Of a stretch of DNA of 64,000 nt, positions 35,939 through 42,106 are shown piece after piece. Position numbers and translations under genes: made by a program. Each line of letters begins with the position of its first letter. Position 1 is the stretch's first letter. The stretch covers positions 640,001 to 704,000 of the forward strand of contig BK006948.2 of assembly GCA_000146045.2 (NCBI GenBank), written 5' to 3'. The notes under the pieces are model-generated. The model did not search any database. It was not told the origin of the DNA and worked only from the letters and a program-made list of their open reading frames with translations. The stretch is from TPA_inf: Saccharomyces (lineage: Eukaryota).

Positions 35939-37840
35939 ATGGGACTCCTAAACTCTTCAGATAAGGAAATTATCAAAAGGGCTCTACCAAAAGCGTCGAA
36001 TAAGATTATTGATGTTACGGTGGCTCGACTATACATTGCATACCCTGATAAAAATGAATGGCAGTACACTGGACTTTCAGGAGCTCTTGCTCTAGTAGAC
36101 GATCTTGTGGGGAATACTTTTTTTTTGAAATTAGTTGACATCAATGGCCATAGAGGAGTTATCTGGGACCAAGAATTGTATGTGAATTTTGAATACTATC
36201 AAGACCGTACTTTTTTTCATACATTTGAGATGGAAGAATGCTTTGCAGGTTTATTGTTTGTAGATATTAATGAAGCATCGCACTTTTTAAAGAGAGTTCA
36301 AAAGCGTGAAAGATATGCTAACAGGAAAACTTTGTTGAACAAAAATGCTGTAGCATTAACCAAGAAAGTAAGAGAAGAACAAAAATCTCAAGTGGTGCAC
36401 GGCCCAAGAGGGGAGTCATTGATTGACAATCAAAGGAAAAGATATAATTATGAAGATGTGGACACAATTCCAACTACAAAGCATAAGGCTCCTCCCCCTC
36501 CTCCGCCAACGGCCGAAACATTTGATTCAGACCAAACAAGTTCATTTTCCGATATCAATTCGACAACAGCATCCGCACCGACTACCCCAGCCCCTGCTCT
36601 TCCTCCTGCATCTCCTGAAGTAAGAAAAGAAGAAACGCATCCAAAGCATAGTTTACCGCCTTTACCAAATCAGTTTGCGCCATTACCAGACCCTCCACAA
36701 CATAACTCTCCACCTCAAAATAACGCGCCTTCGCAACCCCAAAGCAATCCATTTCCATTCCCAATTCCTGAAATTCCCTCGACACAGTCTGCAACAAACC
36801 CATTTCCATTTCCGGTACCTCAGCAGCAGTTTAATCAAGCTCCTTCAATGGGCATACCACAGCAGAATAGGCCCCTTCCACAGTTGCCTAACAGAAATAA
36901 TCGGCCTGTGCCACCTCCTCCGCCAATGCGTACCACTACTGAAGGTTCAGGTGTTCGCCTACCTGCTCCTCCACCTCCGCCAAGGCGTGGGCCAGCACCA
37001 CCGCCTCCACCACATAGGCACGTAACCAGTAATACCCTGAATTCTGCCGGTGGAAATAGCCTCCTTCCACAGGCCACTGGAAGAAGAGGGCCAGCACCAC
37101 CACCTCCTCCAAGAGCATCTCGCCCCACACCAAACGTTACGATGCAACAAAATCCACAACAGTACAATAATTCTAACCGCCCCTTTGGATATCAGACAAA
37201 TAGCAACATGTCATCTCCACCCCCTCCTCCAGTGACAACTTTCAATACCCTGACACCACAAATGACTGCAGCAACTGGACAACCTGCAGTTCCCCTTCCT
37301 CAGAATACTCAAGCACCTTCGCAAGCCACAAATGTGCCAGTGGCACCACCACCTCCTCCGGCATCTTTAGGCCAGTCGCAGATACCTCAGTCAGCACCCT
37401 CAGCACCTATTCCGCCAACGTTACCATCGACGACGAGTGCTGCACCACCTCCGCCACCAGCATTCCTAACTCAACAACCTCAATCTGGAGGAGCTCCAGC
37501 TCCACCCCCACCTCCTCAAATGCCAGCTACATCAACATCCGGAGGCGGTTCATTCGCTGAAACTACTGGAGATGCAGGTCGTGATGCACTTTTAGCTTCA
37601 ATTAGAGGGGCAGGTGGCATAGGCGCTTTGAGAAAAGTTGACAAATCGCAGCTAGATAAGCCCTCAGTTTTACTGCAGGAAGCACGTGGAGAATCTGCTT
37701 CACCACCAGCAGCGGCTGGAAATGGAGGCACACCTGGTGGACCTCCGGCTTCTTTAGCAGATGCGTTGGCAGCAGCTTTAAACAAAAGAAAAACTAAAGT
37801 GGGAGCTCATGACGATATGGACAATGGTGATGATTGGTAA
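35939..37840 (+). CDS. LAS17: LAS17, the yeast WASP homolog and an actin assembly factor, 633 aa.
   Basis: N-terminal WH1 domain, long polyproline tracts including three RGPAPPPPP repeats, a WH2 motif (RDALLASIRGAGGIGALRKV) and an acidic C-terminus DDMDNGDDW. Confidence 0.95.
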   Translation: MGLLNSSDKEIIKRALPKASNKIIDVTVARLYIAYPDKNEWQYTGLSGALALVDDLVGNTFFLKLVDINGHRGVIWDQELYVNFEYYQDRTFFHTFEMEECFAGLLFVDINEASHFLKRVQKRERYANRKTLLNKNAVALTKKVREEQKSQVVHGPRGESLIDNQRKRYNYEDVDTIPTTKHKAPPPPPPTAETFDSDQTSSFSDINSTTASAPTTPAPALPPASPEVRKEETHPKHSLPPLPNQFAPLPDPPQHNSPPQNNAPSQPQSNPFPFPIPEIPSTQSATNPFPFPVPQQQFNQAPSMGIPQQNRPLPQLPNRNNRPVPPPPPMRTTTEGSGVRLPAPPPPPRRGPAPPPPPHRHVTSNTLNSAGGNSLLPQATGRRGPAPPPPPRASRPTPNVTMQQNPQQYNNSNRPFGYQTNSNMSSPPPPPVTTFNTLTPQMTAATGQPAVPLPQNTQAPSQATNVPVAPPPPPASLGQSQIPQSAPSAPIPPTLPSTTSAAPPPPPAFLTQQPQSGGAPAPPPPPQMPATSTSGGGSFAETTGDAGRDALLASIRGAGGIGALRKVDKSQLDKPSVLLQEARGESASPPAAAGNGGTPGGPPASLADALAAALNKRKTKVGAHDDMDNGDDW

Positions 37841-38190
37841 TGGAATGCAAACAAAGATGAAACTACTGTTATAGAAAATATGTAATTTTATGTACTCACT
37901 ATTAATGATCAAAGTAATTGCTCTTTTTATGTATAGTTTCTTTAATCGGAGGAAATTTTGATATAGGTTCAAAGGCGGTCAGTGATTGAATGATCAAGGT
38001 AATAGTCGGGCTACAATGATGGCCATCCCTATGGCCGTTTCAAATGTTTGAGAAAATGATGTATAGTAAATCCTAGATTTTAGCAGTTCGAATCAAAAAC
38101 CCATGTAAAAAGGGTAAATATTTCCTAATTATAATATTTTTGTTTAATTACACATGTAGAACAATAAAAGTATAGAATTTTAGATAGTAT

Positions 38191-38793
<603 letters not shown>

Positions 38794-38871
38794 TTTGTAT
38801 AATTTGTTTATCTAGTATCTTGAGGAAGGAGTGCTAATTCAGAATCTTCATCCTTAATATTGAAGATTGGG

Positions 38872-39261
38872 ATGAGATTACTTCACCATGGTGAATACGG
38901 GACAAAACTAATTGGAGGAAAATGCAGCATAGATGGGAAACTCGGTCACCCTTGCCCGCTAAGCAGAAGACGCAAAAAACATCTGCGCGAAAAAGAAATG
39001 GGTCCACAATATGTACGGATGTATGGTCCCAAAAGAAAAGCCATAATAAGGACAGGAAACCCGGATGACGGCATTAATTTACCTGACACCGGCCGAGGCA
39101 CCTTAACTGCAGCCACAATTTGGTCACGAGCTTACCATTCAAATTATTCTTACCTTGTACGCCCAAAAGTAGTGACTCTTTCTAAGCATCGCGAATTAAT
39201 GACTACTTTTCTTTTATACGTTTTATATGTATGTATATATATAAGTGCCTTCATAAAATAG
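38872..39261 (+). CDS. FYV12: FYV12, an annotated ORF of unknown function, 129 aa. Its coding status is questionable (see findings).
   Basis: ATG-initiated 129-codon ORF; the track ORF is extended to TTG 38860. It occupies 390 of the 563 bp between the divergent RPS30B and SER1 start codons. Confidence 0.4.
   Translation: MRLLHHGEYGTKLIGGKCSIDGKLGHPCPLSRRRKKHLREKEMGPQYVRMYGPKRKAIIRTGNPDDGINLPDTGRGTLTAATIWSRAYHSNYSYLVRPKVVTLSKHRELMTTFLLYVLYVCIYISAFIK
39010..39022. promoter_or_regulatory. Rap1-like site upstream of RPS30B.
   Basis: TATGTACGGATGT has one mismatch to KRTGTRYGGGTGT (the reverse complement of ACACCCRYACAYM). It lies about 217 bp upstream of the RPS30B ATG. A weaker second copy overlaps it at 39017-39029. 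Confidence 0.35.
39173..39178. promoter_or_regulatory. Gcn4 core site TGACTC upstream of SER1.
   Basis: 'gtgactctt' lies about 180 bp upstream of the SER1 ATG. SER1 is under general amino-acid control. Confidence 0.3.
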
Positions 39262-39356
39262 ACAAAGACATTAAGGAGCCTTTGAAATTACTTAATTGAA
39301 CAACACAGGTCTAATTAGTTGATCAATCATCGATTAACCATTAGTGATAAGAAACA

Positions 39357-40544
39357 ATGTCTTTGGAAAGAGAGGAACCACAACATTTCGGAGCAGGGCC
39401 AGCTCAAATGCCTACACCAGTTTTGCAACAAGCTGCTAAAGACTTAATCAATTTCAATGACATAGGTTTGGGTATCGGTGAAATTTCTCACCGTTCGAAG
39501 GATGCCACCAAAGTGATTGAAGACTCTAAGAAGCACTTAATCGAACTGCTAAATATTCCTGACACTCATGAAGTGTTCTACTTGCAAGGTGGTGGCACTA
39601 CTGGTTTTTCTTCCGTTGCTACTAATTTGGCAGCTGCATATGTGGGTAAGCATGGGAAGATTGCACCTGCCGGTTATTTAGTCACCGGTAGTTGGTCTCA
39701 GAAATCTTTTGAAGAGGCAAAGAGATTGCACGTTCCTGCTGAAGTTATCTTCAACGCTAAAGATTATAACAATGGCAAATTTGGTAAAATTCCGGATGAA
39801 TCCCTTTGGGAAGATAAAATCAAAGGTAAGGCTTTCTCATACGTGTACCTATGTGAGAATGAAACTGTTCATGGTGTTGAATGGCCAGAATTACCAAAAT
39901 GTTTAGTAAACGACCCCAACATCGAAATTGTTGCTGACTTATCCAGCGACATTTTGTCTCGTAAGATTGACGTTTCTCAATACGGTGTCATCATGGCAGG
40001 CGCCCAAAAAAACATTGGTTTAGCAGGCTTAACCCTATACATTATCAAGAAATCCATCCTTAAGAATATTTCTGGCGCTTCTGATGAAACATTACATGAA
40101 TTGGGAGTACCAATCACCCCTATTGCATTCGACTATCCAACGGTGGTGAAGAACAACTCAGCCTATAATACAATTCCAATTTTCACTTTACATGTTATGG
40201 ATCTCGTGTTCCAACATATTTTGAAGAAGGGTGGTGTTGAAGCGCAACAGGCTGAAAATGAAGAAAAGGCCAAGATATTATATGAGGCATTGGATGCAAA
40301 TTCAGATTTTTACAACGTTCCAGTGGATCCAAAGTGTAGATCAAAAATGAATGTCGTTTTCACCCTTAAAAAGGACGGCCTTGATGACCAGTTTCTAAAA
40401 GAGGCAGCTGCTCGTCATTTAACCGGTTTGAAAGGACATCGTTCAGTTGGTGGGTTCAGAGCCTCCATCTATAACGCGCTTTCAGTGAAAGCTGTACAAA
40501 ACTTGGTAGATTTTATCAAGGAATTTGCTGAGAAAAACGCTTAA
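39357..40544 (+). CDS. SER1: Phosphoserine aminotransferase (class V PLP aminotransferase), 395 aa.
   Basis: 395-aa ORF with the PSAT PLP-lysine region (GAQKNIGLAGLT). Position matches YOR184W. Confidence 0.93.
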   Translation: MSLEREEPQHFGAGPAQMPTPVLQQAAKDLINFNDIGLGIGEISHRSKDATKVIEDSKKHLIELLNIPDTHEVFYLQGGGTTGFSSVATNLAAAYVGKHGKIAPAGYLVTGSWSQKSFEEAKRLHVPAEVIFNAKDYNNGKFGKIPDESLWEDKIKGKAFSYVYLCENETVHGVEWPELPKCLVNDPNIEIVADLSSDILSRKIDVSQYGVIMAGAQKNIGLAGLTLYIIKKSILKNISGASDETLHELGVPITPIAFDYPTVVKNNSAYNTIPIFTLHVMDLVFQHILKKGGVEAQQAENEEKAKILYEALDANSDFYNVPVDPKCRSKMNVVFTLKKDGLDDQFLKEAAARHLTGLKGHRSVGGFRASIYNALSVKAVQNLVDFIKEFAEKNA

Positions 40545-40684
40545 TATCAGCGGAATATGCCTGTAATTTGGTTCAAAGAAAAACTTTTTCAAGTCATATG
40601 TAAGTTTTAAATAAATCAGTTTACGAACATGCACAAGAATAACTTCTCTTCTTTTTCTTGAAATAAAGGCCGAATTATACGATA

Positions 40685-40863
40685 TGATATGAGACGTTCT
40701 AATTACAATACGATACCGTGAGATAAAAATAGCGATATCCTCGTACTCAAAGAAGTCTAATTGTTTTAGCCCGTTGATCAAAAAAATAAAATGTATTTTT
40801 ATTTTTTTGTCATCCAGCTCAAGATCGTAATATTGGCAATTAACAACCGAGCGAGGCACAGGG
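40685..40863 (+). ncRNA. SNR36: Candidate H/ACA box snoRNA, possibly SNR36.
   Basis: An H-box-like AAAGAA at 40749-40754 separates a 64-nt 5' segment from a 103-nt 3' segment. An ACA at 40858-40860 sits 3 nt before the proposed 3' end. From memory, SNR36 lies between SER1 and GSP2 on chromosome XV. I did not verify the secondary structure. Confidence 0.4.
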
Positions 40864-41443
40864 CAAAGAGAATGTGGGTGAGACTGAACTATCTCTCCCA
40901 ATATATTATACTTTTTTTTGTCGCGTCTACCAATTAAATGAAAACATAATTGGGAATACTTTCCTCTTCTTATATTTTATCTTAACTCGTTTCCGATCTT
41001 CTGATATTCTATTTGTATATGAATAAGAACATTATTGTAATCGAAAGAAGTATCTCTTTTCAAGAGGATTACTTTTCATTGAAAACTTTTGGACGGGCAA
41101 AAAAAAAAAAGCGCCAGCAGGAAGAAAAAAGGAATCTAGTAAAAAATAAAAATTAGGTTTATAAAGTAGTAAGTGAAGTGCAAGAGGGAGCGTTATTGGA
41201 CGATCATATTGTGATCGGATCCCGTTTATTGGTCTTTGATTCAATTTAAAAGAAAAGAAATGTACAGGTTAAACTTCAACATACCAAAAAAAAATTACAA
41301 TGTGGCAATTAAACAGAGAAGAACTAATTCTTTAAAAATAGACTTTCAGAACTATATATTAAAAATAAAAGAAATTTCAAAAAAAAATTTTTAGATTGAT
41401 GTGAGAAGAAGCAGAATATTTTCGTATATAAATTTTCATGTTT

Positions 41444-42106
41444 TTATAAATCAGCATCGTCTTCATCAGGTAATGGTAAAGCAGTGGCTTGGTCCATTTC
41501 TTGCTGGTATTGGTGCATTAGTTGCTCGTCAACTTGCACCTCAGGTGGGGCCAATGCAGGAGACGCAACAAACTCCAATTGTGGGTTACCGGCAAGTTTT
41601 CTAGCCAACCACAAGAAAGGCTTTTCAAAATTATAATTGGATTTTGCAGAAATGTCATAATATTGTAAGTTCTTTTTTCTATGGAAAGTGATAGTCTTGG
41701 CCTTGACCTTTCTCTCTTTGACATCGACTTTATTGCCACATAGCACTATGGGAATATTTTCACACACACGGACTAAGTCTCTATGCCAATTAGGGACGTT
41801 CTTGTAAGTGATTCTGGATGTGACATCGAACATAATAATTGCACATTGAGCATTGATGTAATAACCATCCCTTAACCCGCCAAATTTTTCTTGGCCTGCG
41901 GTATCCCAGACATCGAACTTAATTTCACCGAAATTAGTATAAAAAGATAGAGGATGAACTTCTACTCCGATAGTTGCAATGTATTTTTTTTCAAATTCAC
42001 CGGTCAGATGTCTCTTCACAAAGGTAGTCTTACCAGTACCTCCATCACCAACAAGAACTAACTTGAAAGTGGGAACCTCGGCATTGTTTTGAGCAGGTGC
42101 TGACAT
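41444..42106 (-). CDS. GSP2: Ran GTPase, 220 aa.
   Basis: Translation [53 protein letters not shown]...DDADL. The 220-aa length and N-terminus fit GSP2 rather than GSP1. Confidence 0.93.

Follow-up and report, generated by a model that had tools for sequence, protein, structure and literature searches.

FYV12 (YOR183W), which is annotated as a protein-coding ORF on chromosome XV of Saccharomyces cerevisiae, appears to be a chance ORF that is specific to this species and lies on the divergent promoter shared by RPS30B and SER1, and we put the probability of this reading at roughly 0.86. The anatomy of the locus, the pattern of its conservation and the lack of a coding signature were determined in this analysis, and the occupancy of the DNA by transcription factors was taken from the literature. 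A preliminary description of the same DNA had proposed that FYV12 was promoter DNA rather than a protein gene, and that proposal was supported, as the evidence from frame conservation, substitutions, codon usage, polymorphism and ChIP-backed motifs was all in agreement. The window referred to throughout is the whole stretch of 64,000 nucleotides that was analyzed, in which each position equals the chromosome XV position minus 640,000, a conversion that was anchored on YOR182C (678191..678793; PMC7357790 supplement).

The local gene order is a LAS17-like gene (35939-37840, plus strand), RPS30B (minus strand), the FYV12 ORF (plus strand) and SER1 (plus strand), and the positions of the individual features are collected in Table 1. 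The start codons of RPS30B and SER1 are separated by a gap of 563 bp, of which the FYV12 ORF takes 390 bp with remainders of 78 bp and 95 bp on either side, and the coordinates given for this arrangement in the preliminary description were all exact. The ORF overlaps promoters only and no coding sequence. On the plus strand there are 78 bp ahead of the FYV12 ATG, followed by the start codon and intron of RPS30B, and it was confirmed that with so little free DNA any promoter belonging to FYV12 itself would run into RPS30B. The sequence ATGGTACGT at the RPS30B start codon is kept in all seven Saccharomyces species. The sole match in an Rfam scan of positions 36000-42000 was snR36, which is outside of the intergenic region.

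Table 1. Features of the RPS30B and SER1 intergenic region and of the flanking genes, in window positions.
Feature	Position	Strand	Remarks
RPS30B exon 2	38191-38379	-	Translates to the S30 protein; 63 residues in total
RPS30B 5' splice site GTACGT	38785-38790	-	Directly after the ATG
RPS30B start codon	38791..38793	-	Plus strand reads 'cat'; exon 1 consists of the ATG only
RPS30B 5' leader and core promoter	38794..38871	-	78 bp outside the FYV12 ORF
FYV12/YOR183W annotated ORF	38872..39261	+	129 codons; ATG at 38872, stop ends at 39261
GACGCA motif	38969..38974		~35 bp from the Rap1 site, on the RPS30B side
A5 run deciding the FYV12 frame	38990..38994	+	A4 in natural isolates and in S. paradoxus
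ChIP amplicon 'UAS of RPS30B'	39007..39169		Primers KK1027 and KK1026; wholly within the FYV12 ORF
Rap1 site, RPS30B UAS	39009..39022	-	216-229 bp upstream of the RPS30B ATG, pointing towards RPS30B
Gcn4 ChIP-seq peak	39101..39200 (chrXV:679101-679200)		PMC7773203 S4 Data
SER1-side island GCAGCCACAATTTGGTCACGAG	39109..39130		Within the Gcn4 ChIP peak interval
SER1 UAS island TGACTCTTTCTAAGCATCGCGAATTAATGACTACTT	39173..39208	+	TGACTC at 39173-39178; Gcn4-like TGACTA at 39200-39205
SER1 TATA element TATATATATAAG	39234..39245	+	In the last nine sense codons of FYV12, ~115 bp upstream of the SER1 ATG
SER1 initiation region and 5' leader	39262..39356	+	95 bp, from the FYV12 stop to the SER1 ATG
SER1, phosphoserine aminotransferase	39357..40544	+	395 aa; served as positive control in the tests of coding conservation

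The orthologous SER1 loci of six other Saccharomyces species, S. paradoxus (L009), S. mikatae (L002), S. kudriavzevii (L003), S. arboricola (L012), S. eubayanus (L010) and S. uvarum (L011), were fetched by way of their SER1 proteins and compared with the window. Reading from the ATG that aligns with that of FYV12, the frame remains open for 40 codons in S. paradoxus, 1 in S. mikatae, 65 in S. kudriavzevii and 21 in S. arboricola, versus 129 in S. cerevisiae, and each of these four sister species has between 8 and 13 indels across FYV12 whose lengths are not divisible by three. Upstream of SER1 in S. uvarum there was no plus-strand ATG ORF of at least 50 aa. The FYV12 frame is thus broken in all six of the other species examined. 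No gene is called between the position of RPS30B and SER1 in the annotated records of S. paradoxus, S. mikatae, S. kudriavzevii, S. eubayanus and S. arboricola; the S. uvarum locus carries no weight with regard to gene calls because it is from an unannotated metagenome contig. The substitutions between S. cerevisiae and S. paradoxus are distributed over the first, second and third codon positions as 22/27/23 in FYV12 versus 14/5/88 in SER1, and an excess of third-position substitutions in FYV12 was looked for and not found in any of the four species comparisons (22/27/23, 36/38/26, 47/50/47 and 38/34/39). The invariant columns within the ORF number 51/44/41 by codon position.

Codon usage gave the same result. 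A log-odds score was derived with 18 long ORFs from the window as the training set, and 82 length-matched pieces of those ORFs served as the control. FYV12 scored -0.07 in frame, which falls short of the value for its +1 frame (0.07) and below all of the real-gene pieces (mean 0.227, minimum 0.008). A search of 5.8 billion proteins identified five clusters that match FYV12, of which the named ones (P0003-P0005) are from S. cerevisiae, while P0001 and P0002 are 98% and 91% identical to FYV12; the largest cluster, P0001, has 41 member sequences in which the ORF is intact, as it is in S288C. The Pfam search of the FYV12 product retrieved no family at E values up to 1. When the 563-bp region was subjected to dinucleotide shuffling, an ATG-initiated ORF of at least 129 codons arose in 0.08% of the shuffles; for a length of 100 codons or more the share was 0.9%. 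An ORF as long as FYV12 is therefore rare at any single locus, which counts against the chance reading. As yeast has roughly 5,900 intergenic regions (PMC11326039), however, the rate of 0.08% would be expected to yield a few such ORFs over the whole genome by chance.

Within S. cerevisiae, the protein models of FYV12 differ from one another by frame as well as by residue. Three isolates (L016-L018) have a 1-bp deletion in the A-run at 38990 that closes the frame from the ATG at 38872 after 54-57 codons, and two of these (L016 and L017) have an extra G at 39183 as well. In the 128-aa variant P0002 the frame is kept open by two compensating frameshifts. The laboratory strain 74-D694 has a nonsense allele in which E42 is changed to TAA by a SNP at 678,996 (PMC3240633). 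Since S. paradoxus also has the shorter A-run, the frame found in S288C depends on a derived 1-bp insertion.

An alignment of the intergenic region from the five colinear species revealed short invariant islands amid many substitutions and indels, and these islands match transcription factor sites, not codons. The invariant runs of at least 8 bp are CATTTTGTAT, ATATGTACGGATGT, CCACAATTT, GTCACGAG, TGACTCTTTC and CATCGCGAATTAAT. On the side of the RPS30B leader, the conserved blocks are CATTTTGTAT (38791-38800) and TCCTTAATATTGAAGATTG (38851-38869), both present in 5/5 colinear species. The FYV12 ATG itself is conserved in five species, though it is located within a conserved core-promoter block.

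The element that defines the RPS30B side is a Rap1 site, which reads TATGTACGGATGT on the plus strand (39010-39022) and ACATCCGTACAT on the minus strand (39011-39022). The pattern ACAYCCRTACAY has a single match in the 64-kb window versus 0.07 expected, and ATATGTACGGATGT (39009-39022) is invariant in all five colinear species, in which the site is positioned 216-236 bp from the RPS30B ATG. A second candidate Rap1 site that overlaps the first at 39019-39030 (ATGTATGGTCCC) was rejected, as it is conserved in no other species. GACGC is conserved in 5/5 colinear species, and based on what is known of ribosomal-protein promoters we take the GACGCA at 38969-38974 to be an Fhl1-type motif. In order to place published occupancy data on this DNA, the ChIP primers KK1027 and KK1026 (PMC7357790) were mapped onto the window sequence, and the forward primer, KK1027, was found to start on the Rap1 site. 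The amplicon at 39007-39169 is ChIP-positive for Fpr1, Fhl1 and Hmo1, and RPS30B heads the table of Fpr1 targets from ChIP-seq, with an eratio of 264.6 (PMC7357790). RPS30B has also been shown, as a published browser example, as a Category II ribosomal-protein promoter that is bound by Ifh1 and Sfp1. The Rap1 site that had been noticed earlier within the ORF is therefore present, unique in the window, conserved and inside a published ChIP amplicon. As such, the RPS30B promoter is of the Rap1-dependent type, based on an oriented and conserved site in the sequence and on Fhl1 and Ifh1 occupancy from the literature.

On the SER1 side, the runs CCACAATTT and GTCACGAG and the TGACTC island TGACTCTTTC are invariant in 7/7 Saccharomyces species, and CATCGCGAATTAAT is invariant in five. 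The Gcn4 core TGACTC had been pointed out in the preliminary description as expected for SER1, and it is indeed present, conserved and under a ChIP peak; the hexamer by itself is not statistically meaningful, and TGACTC alone was discarded as evidence because its count in the 64-kb window (16 observed versus 26 expected) is not above chance. The copy at 39173-39178 carries weight because it is invariant in seven species and lies under the Gcn4 ChIP-seq peak, and the Gcn4-like TGACTA sits 27 bp downstream of it. Melcher et al. reportedly footprinted Gcn4 on three sites of the SER1 promoter in 1995. The title of that paper, as cited in PMC5845861, places SER1 under both general control and serine repression. 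The Gcn4 peak (chrXV:679101-679200) has the HOMER label 'promoter-TSS' and is assigned to a position 207 bp upstream of YOR184W/SER1 (PMC7773203), and YOR184W is also listed in the differential-expression tables of the same study (PMC7773203 S1 and S4 Data). A TATA-like run is found at the equivalent place of the SER1 TATA element in all of the species aligned. The SER1 promoter is that of a Gcn4 target, with a conserved TGACTC-type element and a TATA element seen in the sequence and in vivo binding known from the literature.

A small and clean natural experiment, which divides the shared promoter according to the gene that is served, is provided by S. uvarum and S. eubayanus, in which RPS30B is inverted onto the SER1 strand and is ~1.4 kb further upstream. 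RPS30 and SER1 are still divergently paired in T. delbrueckii and L. thermotolerans, with only short ORFs in between, which makes the order seen in S. cerevisiae the ancestral one and the inversion a derived state. Upstream of SER1, both rearranged species retain DNA homologous to the FYV12 region leftward to ~38890, and the leader-side blocks CATTTTGTAT and TCCTTAATATTGAAGATTG were not found upstream of SER1 in the alignment of either species. Within the homologous DNA the Rap1 site remains as a relic, decayed to ATGTACGCGTGT and ATATACGCGTAT, and GACGCA has been lost, but CCACAATTT, GTCACGAG and TGACTCTTTC are unchanged despite the departure of RPS30B. At its new position in both species, RPS30B is preceded by another, different Rap1-like site, ACATCAGTACAT, which lies ~210 bp ahead of the ATG. 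The decay of the Rap1 and GACGCA elements together with the fixity of the SER1 islands divides the ORF into a left part that serves RPS30B and a right part that serves SER1. This argues, from sequence comparison, that neither half of the FYV12 ORF owes its conservation to a protein.

With regard to how the rearrangement came about, an inversion breakpoint inside the ORF, with the Rap1 site on one side of it and the SER1 UAS on the other, was considered and ruled out by the seven-species alignment, given the homology to ~38890 and the Rap1 relic. A simple inversion model was also set aside, as it fails to account for ~350 bp (L011:374-726) and ~850 bp (L011:1614-2450) of the S. uvarum locus. 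These two stretches are without a counterpart in S. cerevisiae, and no tRNA and no ORF of more than 62 aa was found in them.

Based on these observations we propose that Rap1 bound to ACATCCGTACAT, ~220 bp upstream of RPS30B, would nucleate Fhl1, Ifh1 and Fpr1 and thereby drive RPS30B leftward from a promoter of the Category II, Hmo1-limited type, with GACGCA and A-runs in the interval from the Rap1 site to the core promoter. In the opposite direction, Gcn4 on TGACTC and TGACTA (39173-39208), along with a further factor on the island at 39109-39130, would direct SER1 rightward from the TATA element at 39234-39245. The ORF written across both sets of elements is open in S. cerevisiae alone, and in S288C it depends on the derived insertion in the A-run.

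This arrangement bears directly on what has been recorded for FYV12 deletions. An ATG-to-stop deletion, such as that of the knockout collection, removes the Rap1 site, GACGCA, the Gcn4 sites, both SER1 islands and the SER1 TATA, and the native upstream DNA that is left amounts to 78 bp for RPS30B and 95 bp for SER1. Because the UAS elements and the TATA are removed, fyv12-delta should have the effect of deleting the promoters of both RPS30B and SER1, and would be expected to behave as a hypomorph or null for these two genes. The phenotypes recorded for the deletion are sensitivity to K1 toxin and failure to enter quiescence (the latter in PMC4528334), and they probably arise through RPS30B and/or SER1. 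A defect in quiescence entry was also reported for several ribosomal-protein deletions (PMC4528334), and a phenotype that is common to such deletions fits the promoter reading of fyv12-delta. In addition, the promoters of knockout cassettes can add effects of their own on neighbouring genes (PMC9754628).

The main alternative to a chance ORF, which we consider unlikely, is that a protein gene of low expression arose de novo and recently inside the promoter, in S. cerevisiae only, that it overlaps the transcription factor sites, and that FYV12 as such a gene itself contributes to the K1-toxin and quiescence phenotypes. Both S288C and many isolates have the ORF open, the non-coding state of the syntenic DNA in the sister species is the signature of de novo origin, and the C-terminal 20 residues of the product (MTTFLLYVLYVCIYISAFIK) are hydrophobic. 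Hydrophobic termini are common in de novo ORFs that are born from T-rich DNA. A meta-analysis of ribosome profiling found that most annotated ORFs, even non-conserved ones, are somewhat translated, with ~100 non-conserved annotated ORFs reported as mostly translated and detectable (bioRxiv 10.1101/2021.07.17.452746). However, there is no space for a promoter of its own, the expression of YOR183W was not estimable in a study in which its RNA-seq coverage was low or absent (bioRxiv 10.1101/101154), frameshift and nonsense alleles segregate within S. cerevisiae, and the signals of codon usage and codon position are absent. The recorded phenotypes cannot separate a gene from a promoter here, because the full deletion removes both UAS elements and the SER1 TATA. 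A related scenario, which we judge to be decidedly unlikely, is that FYV12 is a very young gene written over the working Rap1 and Gcn4 sites of the bidirectional promoter. If so, it would be a coding sequence that originated within the cis-regulatory DNA of a pair of older genes and is constrained by that DNA, such that the Rap1 site would encode the residues YVRM and the TATA box part of the hydrophobic tail.

Two further explanations dispense with a recent protein. Non-coding transcription has a precedent in the serine pathway, where SRG1 regulates SER3, and a plus-strand regulatory non-coding RNA across 38872-39261 might modulate SER1 in the same way, with the ORF being incidental. The serine repression of SER1 that is named besides general control in the title cited in PMC5845861 is in keeping with this, but no plus-strand promoter element was found upstream of 38872, the low or absent RNA-seq coverage of YOR183W counts against a transcript, the conserved islands are already explained by the ChIP-supported Rap1 and Gcn4 sites, and the sequence features require no RNA; we therefore regard it as very improbable. 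That FYV12 is an old protein gene which diverged too fast or was lost in the other species has the conserved ATG at 38872 in its favour and nothing else. It is refuted by the syntenic alignments, as the homologous DNA is alignable in six species with the frame broken differently in each; moreover, the pre-duplication outgroups keep the RPS30/SER1 pair with only short ORFs between, and the S288C frame rests on the derived 1-bp insertion, so that we give this explanation almost no credence.

If FYV12 is promoter DNA, its phenotypes should be reassigned to reduced expression of RPS30B and/or SER1, and gene counts, enrichment analyses and lists of de novo genes should class it as a dubious ORF. 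QTL studies and screens have tested it as a candidate. There was no discussion of FYV12 as promoter DNA in the open-access full texts that were searched, of which only five mention the name, and the supplements of genome-wide surveys may already list it as non-conserved.

Several known systems resemble this locus. FYV12 is like the dubious ORFs of the 100-codon yeast annotation in having more than 100 codons, no homologues, an unconserved frame and a location on regulatory DNA, but unlike them it keeps a gene name, a description as a 'protein of unknown function' and phenotype annotations, and is not classed as dubious in the annotation. The expectation that its deletion perturbs RPS30B and SER1 likewise corresponds to the neighbouring-gene effects that are known from the knockout collection. 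Like the de novo gene MDF1/FYV5, it is species-specific, has syntenic DNA that is non-coding and was named in the K1-toxin screen series; the difference is that MDF1 has direct protein-level functional evidence (PMC4250933), whereas we found none for FYV12, which also carries disabling polymorphisms. Judged on alignments, FYV12 is lineage-restricted in the manner of a transient ORF, with the frame present in one lineage and alignable non-coding DNA in its relatives.

The two halves of the promoter can be compared with well characterized classes in the same way. As in other Gcn4-activated promoters, SER1 has TGACTC and TGACTA ~150-185 bp upstream, a TATA downstream of them and a ChIP-seq peak over the sites, and it is among the amino-acid genes in Gcn4 data sets; it departs from that pattern in that neither site is the full palindromic TGACTCA and in the presence of an extra flanking invariant island (CCACAATTTGGTCACGAG). 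RPS30B resembles a Category II Rap1/Fhl1/Ifh1 promoter in having a single Rap1 site ~220 bp upstream that points towards the gene and is followed by GACGCA and A-runs, and in that the published Fpr1, Fhl1 and Ifh1 occupancy maps to its promoter DNA. It differs from that class in having only one good Rap1 site, in being back-to-back with an amino-acid biosynthesis gene and in that its UAS doubles as an annotated 'coding sequence'. The promoter types, the class of chance ORFs and the neighbouring-gene effect are all familiar, and what their meeting at this locus provides is a caveat on annotation that leaves general principles as they were.

The orientation of RPS30B in both S. uvarum and S. eubayanus was found to be flipped relative to LAS17 and SER1 when their loci were compared with window 38191-38793. 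Upstream of the inverted gene is a Rap1-like site (ACATCAGTACAT), ~210 bp 5' of the ATG, that differs from the S. cerevisiae site. A simple inversion was rejected as a model for this rearrangement, since it fails to account for two S. uvarum flanks of ~350 bp (L011:374-726) and ~850 bp (L011:1614-2450) that have no S. cerevisiae counterpart. Neither flank contained a tRNA, and all ORFs in them were of 62 aa or less. One possibility is that the relocated RPS30B promoter derives from an exchange with the RPS30A locus.

Coordinates of features at the RPS30B/SER1 locus and of the inverted RPS30B regions (L011 and L010, SER1 loci of S. uvarum and S. eubayanus)
Feature	Position	Strand	Remarks
Inverted RPS30B region, S. 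uvarum	L011:939-1600		
Inverted RPS30B region, S. eubayanus	L010:567-1205		
48-codon ORF (MQHRWETRS...)	38922-39068	+	+1 frame relative to FYV12
snR36, H/ACA snoRNA, full-length	40685-40866	-	Rfam RF01242, 188.7 bits

In isolates with an A4 run at 38990-38994, where S288C has A5, the "FYV12" protein models take their N-terminus from the 48-codon ORF, and as such the annotated FYV12 start and its first ~25 residues vary among strains according to the presence or absence of one A.

On the SER1 side, an island at 39109-39130 (GCAGCCACAATTTGGTCACGAG) was unchanged across the seven Saccharomyces species, and on the minus strand it reads as AAATTGTGGC adjoining CTCGTGAC. The consensus for Met31/32 is AAACTGTGGC and that for Cbf1 is CACGTGAC; from these, AAATTGTGGC and CTCGTGAC, respectively, each differ by one mismatch. 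These resemblances hint at a putative Met4-type input to SER1. At this locus (~38380-39356), YOR183W is among the genes tied to a Pho4 ChIP peak, for S. cerevisiae or C. glabrata Pho4 (bioRxiv 10.1101/101154). No CACGTG E-box was evident in the intergenic region, the closest E-box-like sequence being GTCACGAG at 39123-39130.

Immediately 3' of SER1 sits snR36. A mechanical TTG ORF of 139 aa (40482-40901, minus strand) overlaps it and is presumably spurious.

In S. paradoxus (GCA_002079055.1, L009:1857-2227) RPS30B is annotated as an unspliced gene of 87 aa, versus the spliced 63-aa protein whose first exon is the ATG only, and this call looks like an intron mis-annotation. At the N. castellii SER1 locus the RPS30 gene is absent upstream and a PDR-type ABC transporter occupies its place, which agrees with this RPS30 copy having been lost following the whole-genome duplication.
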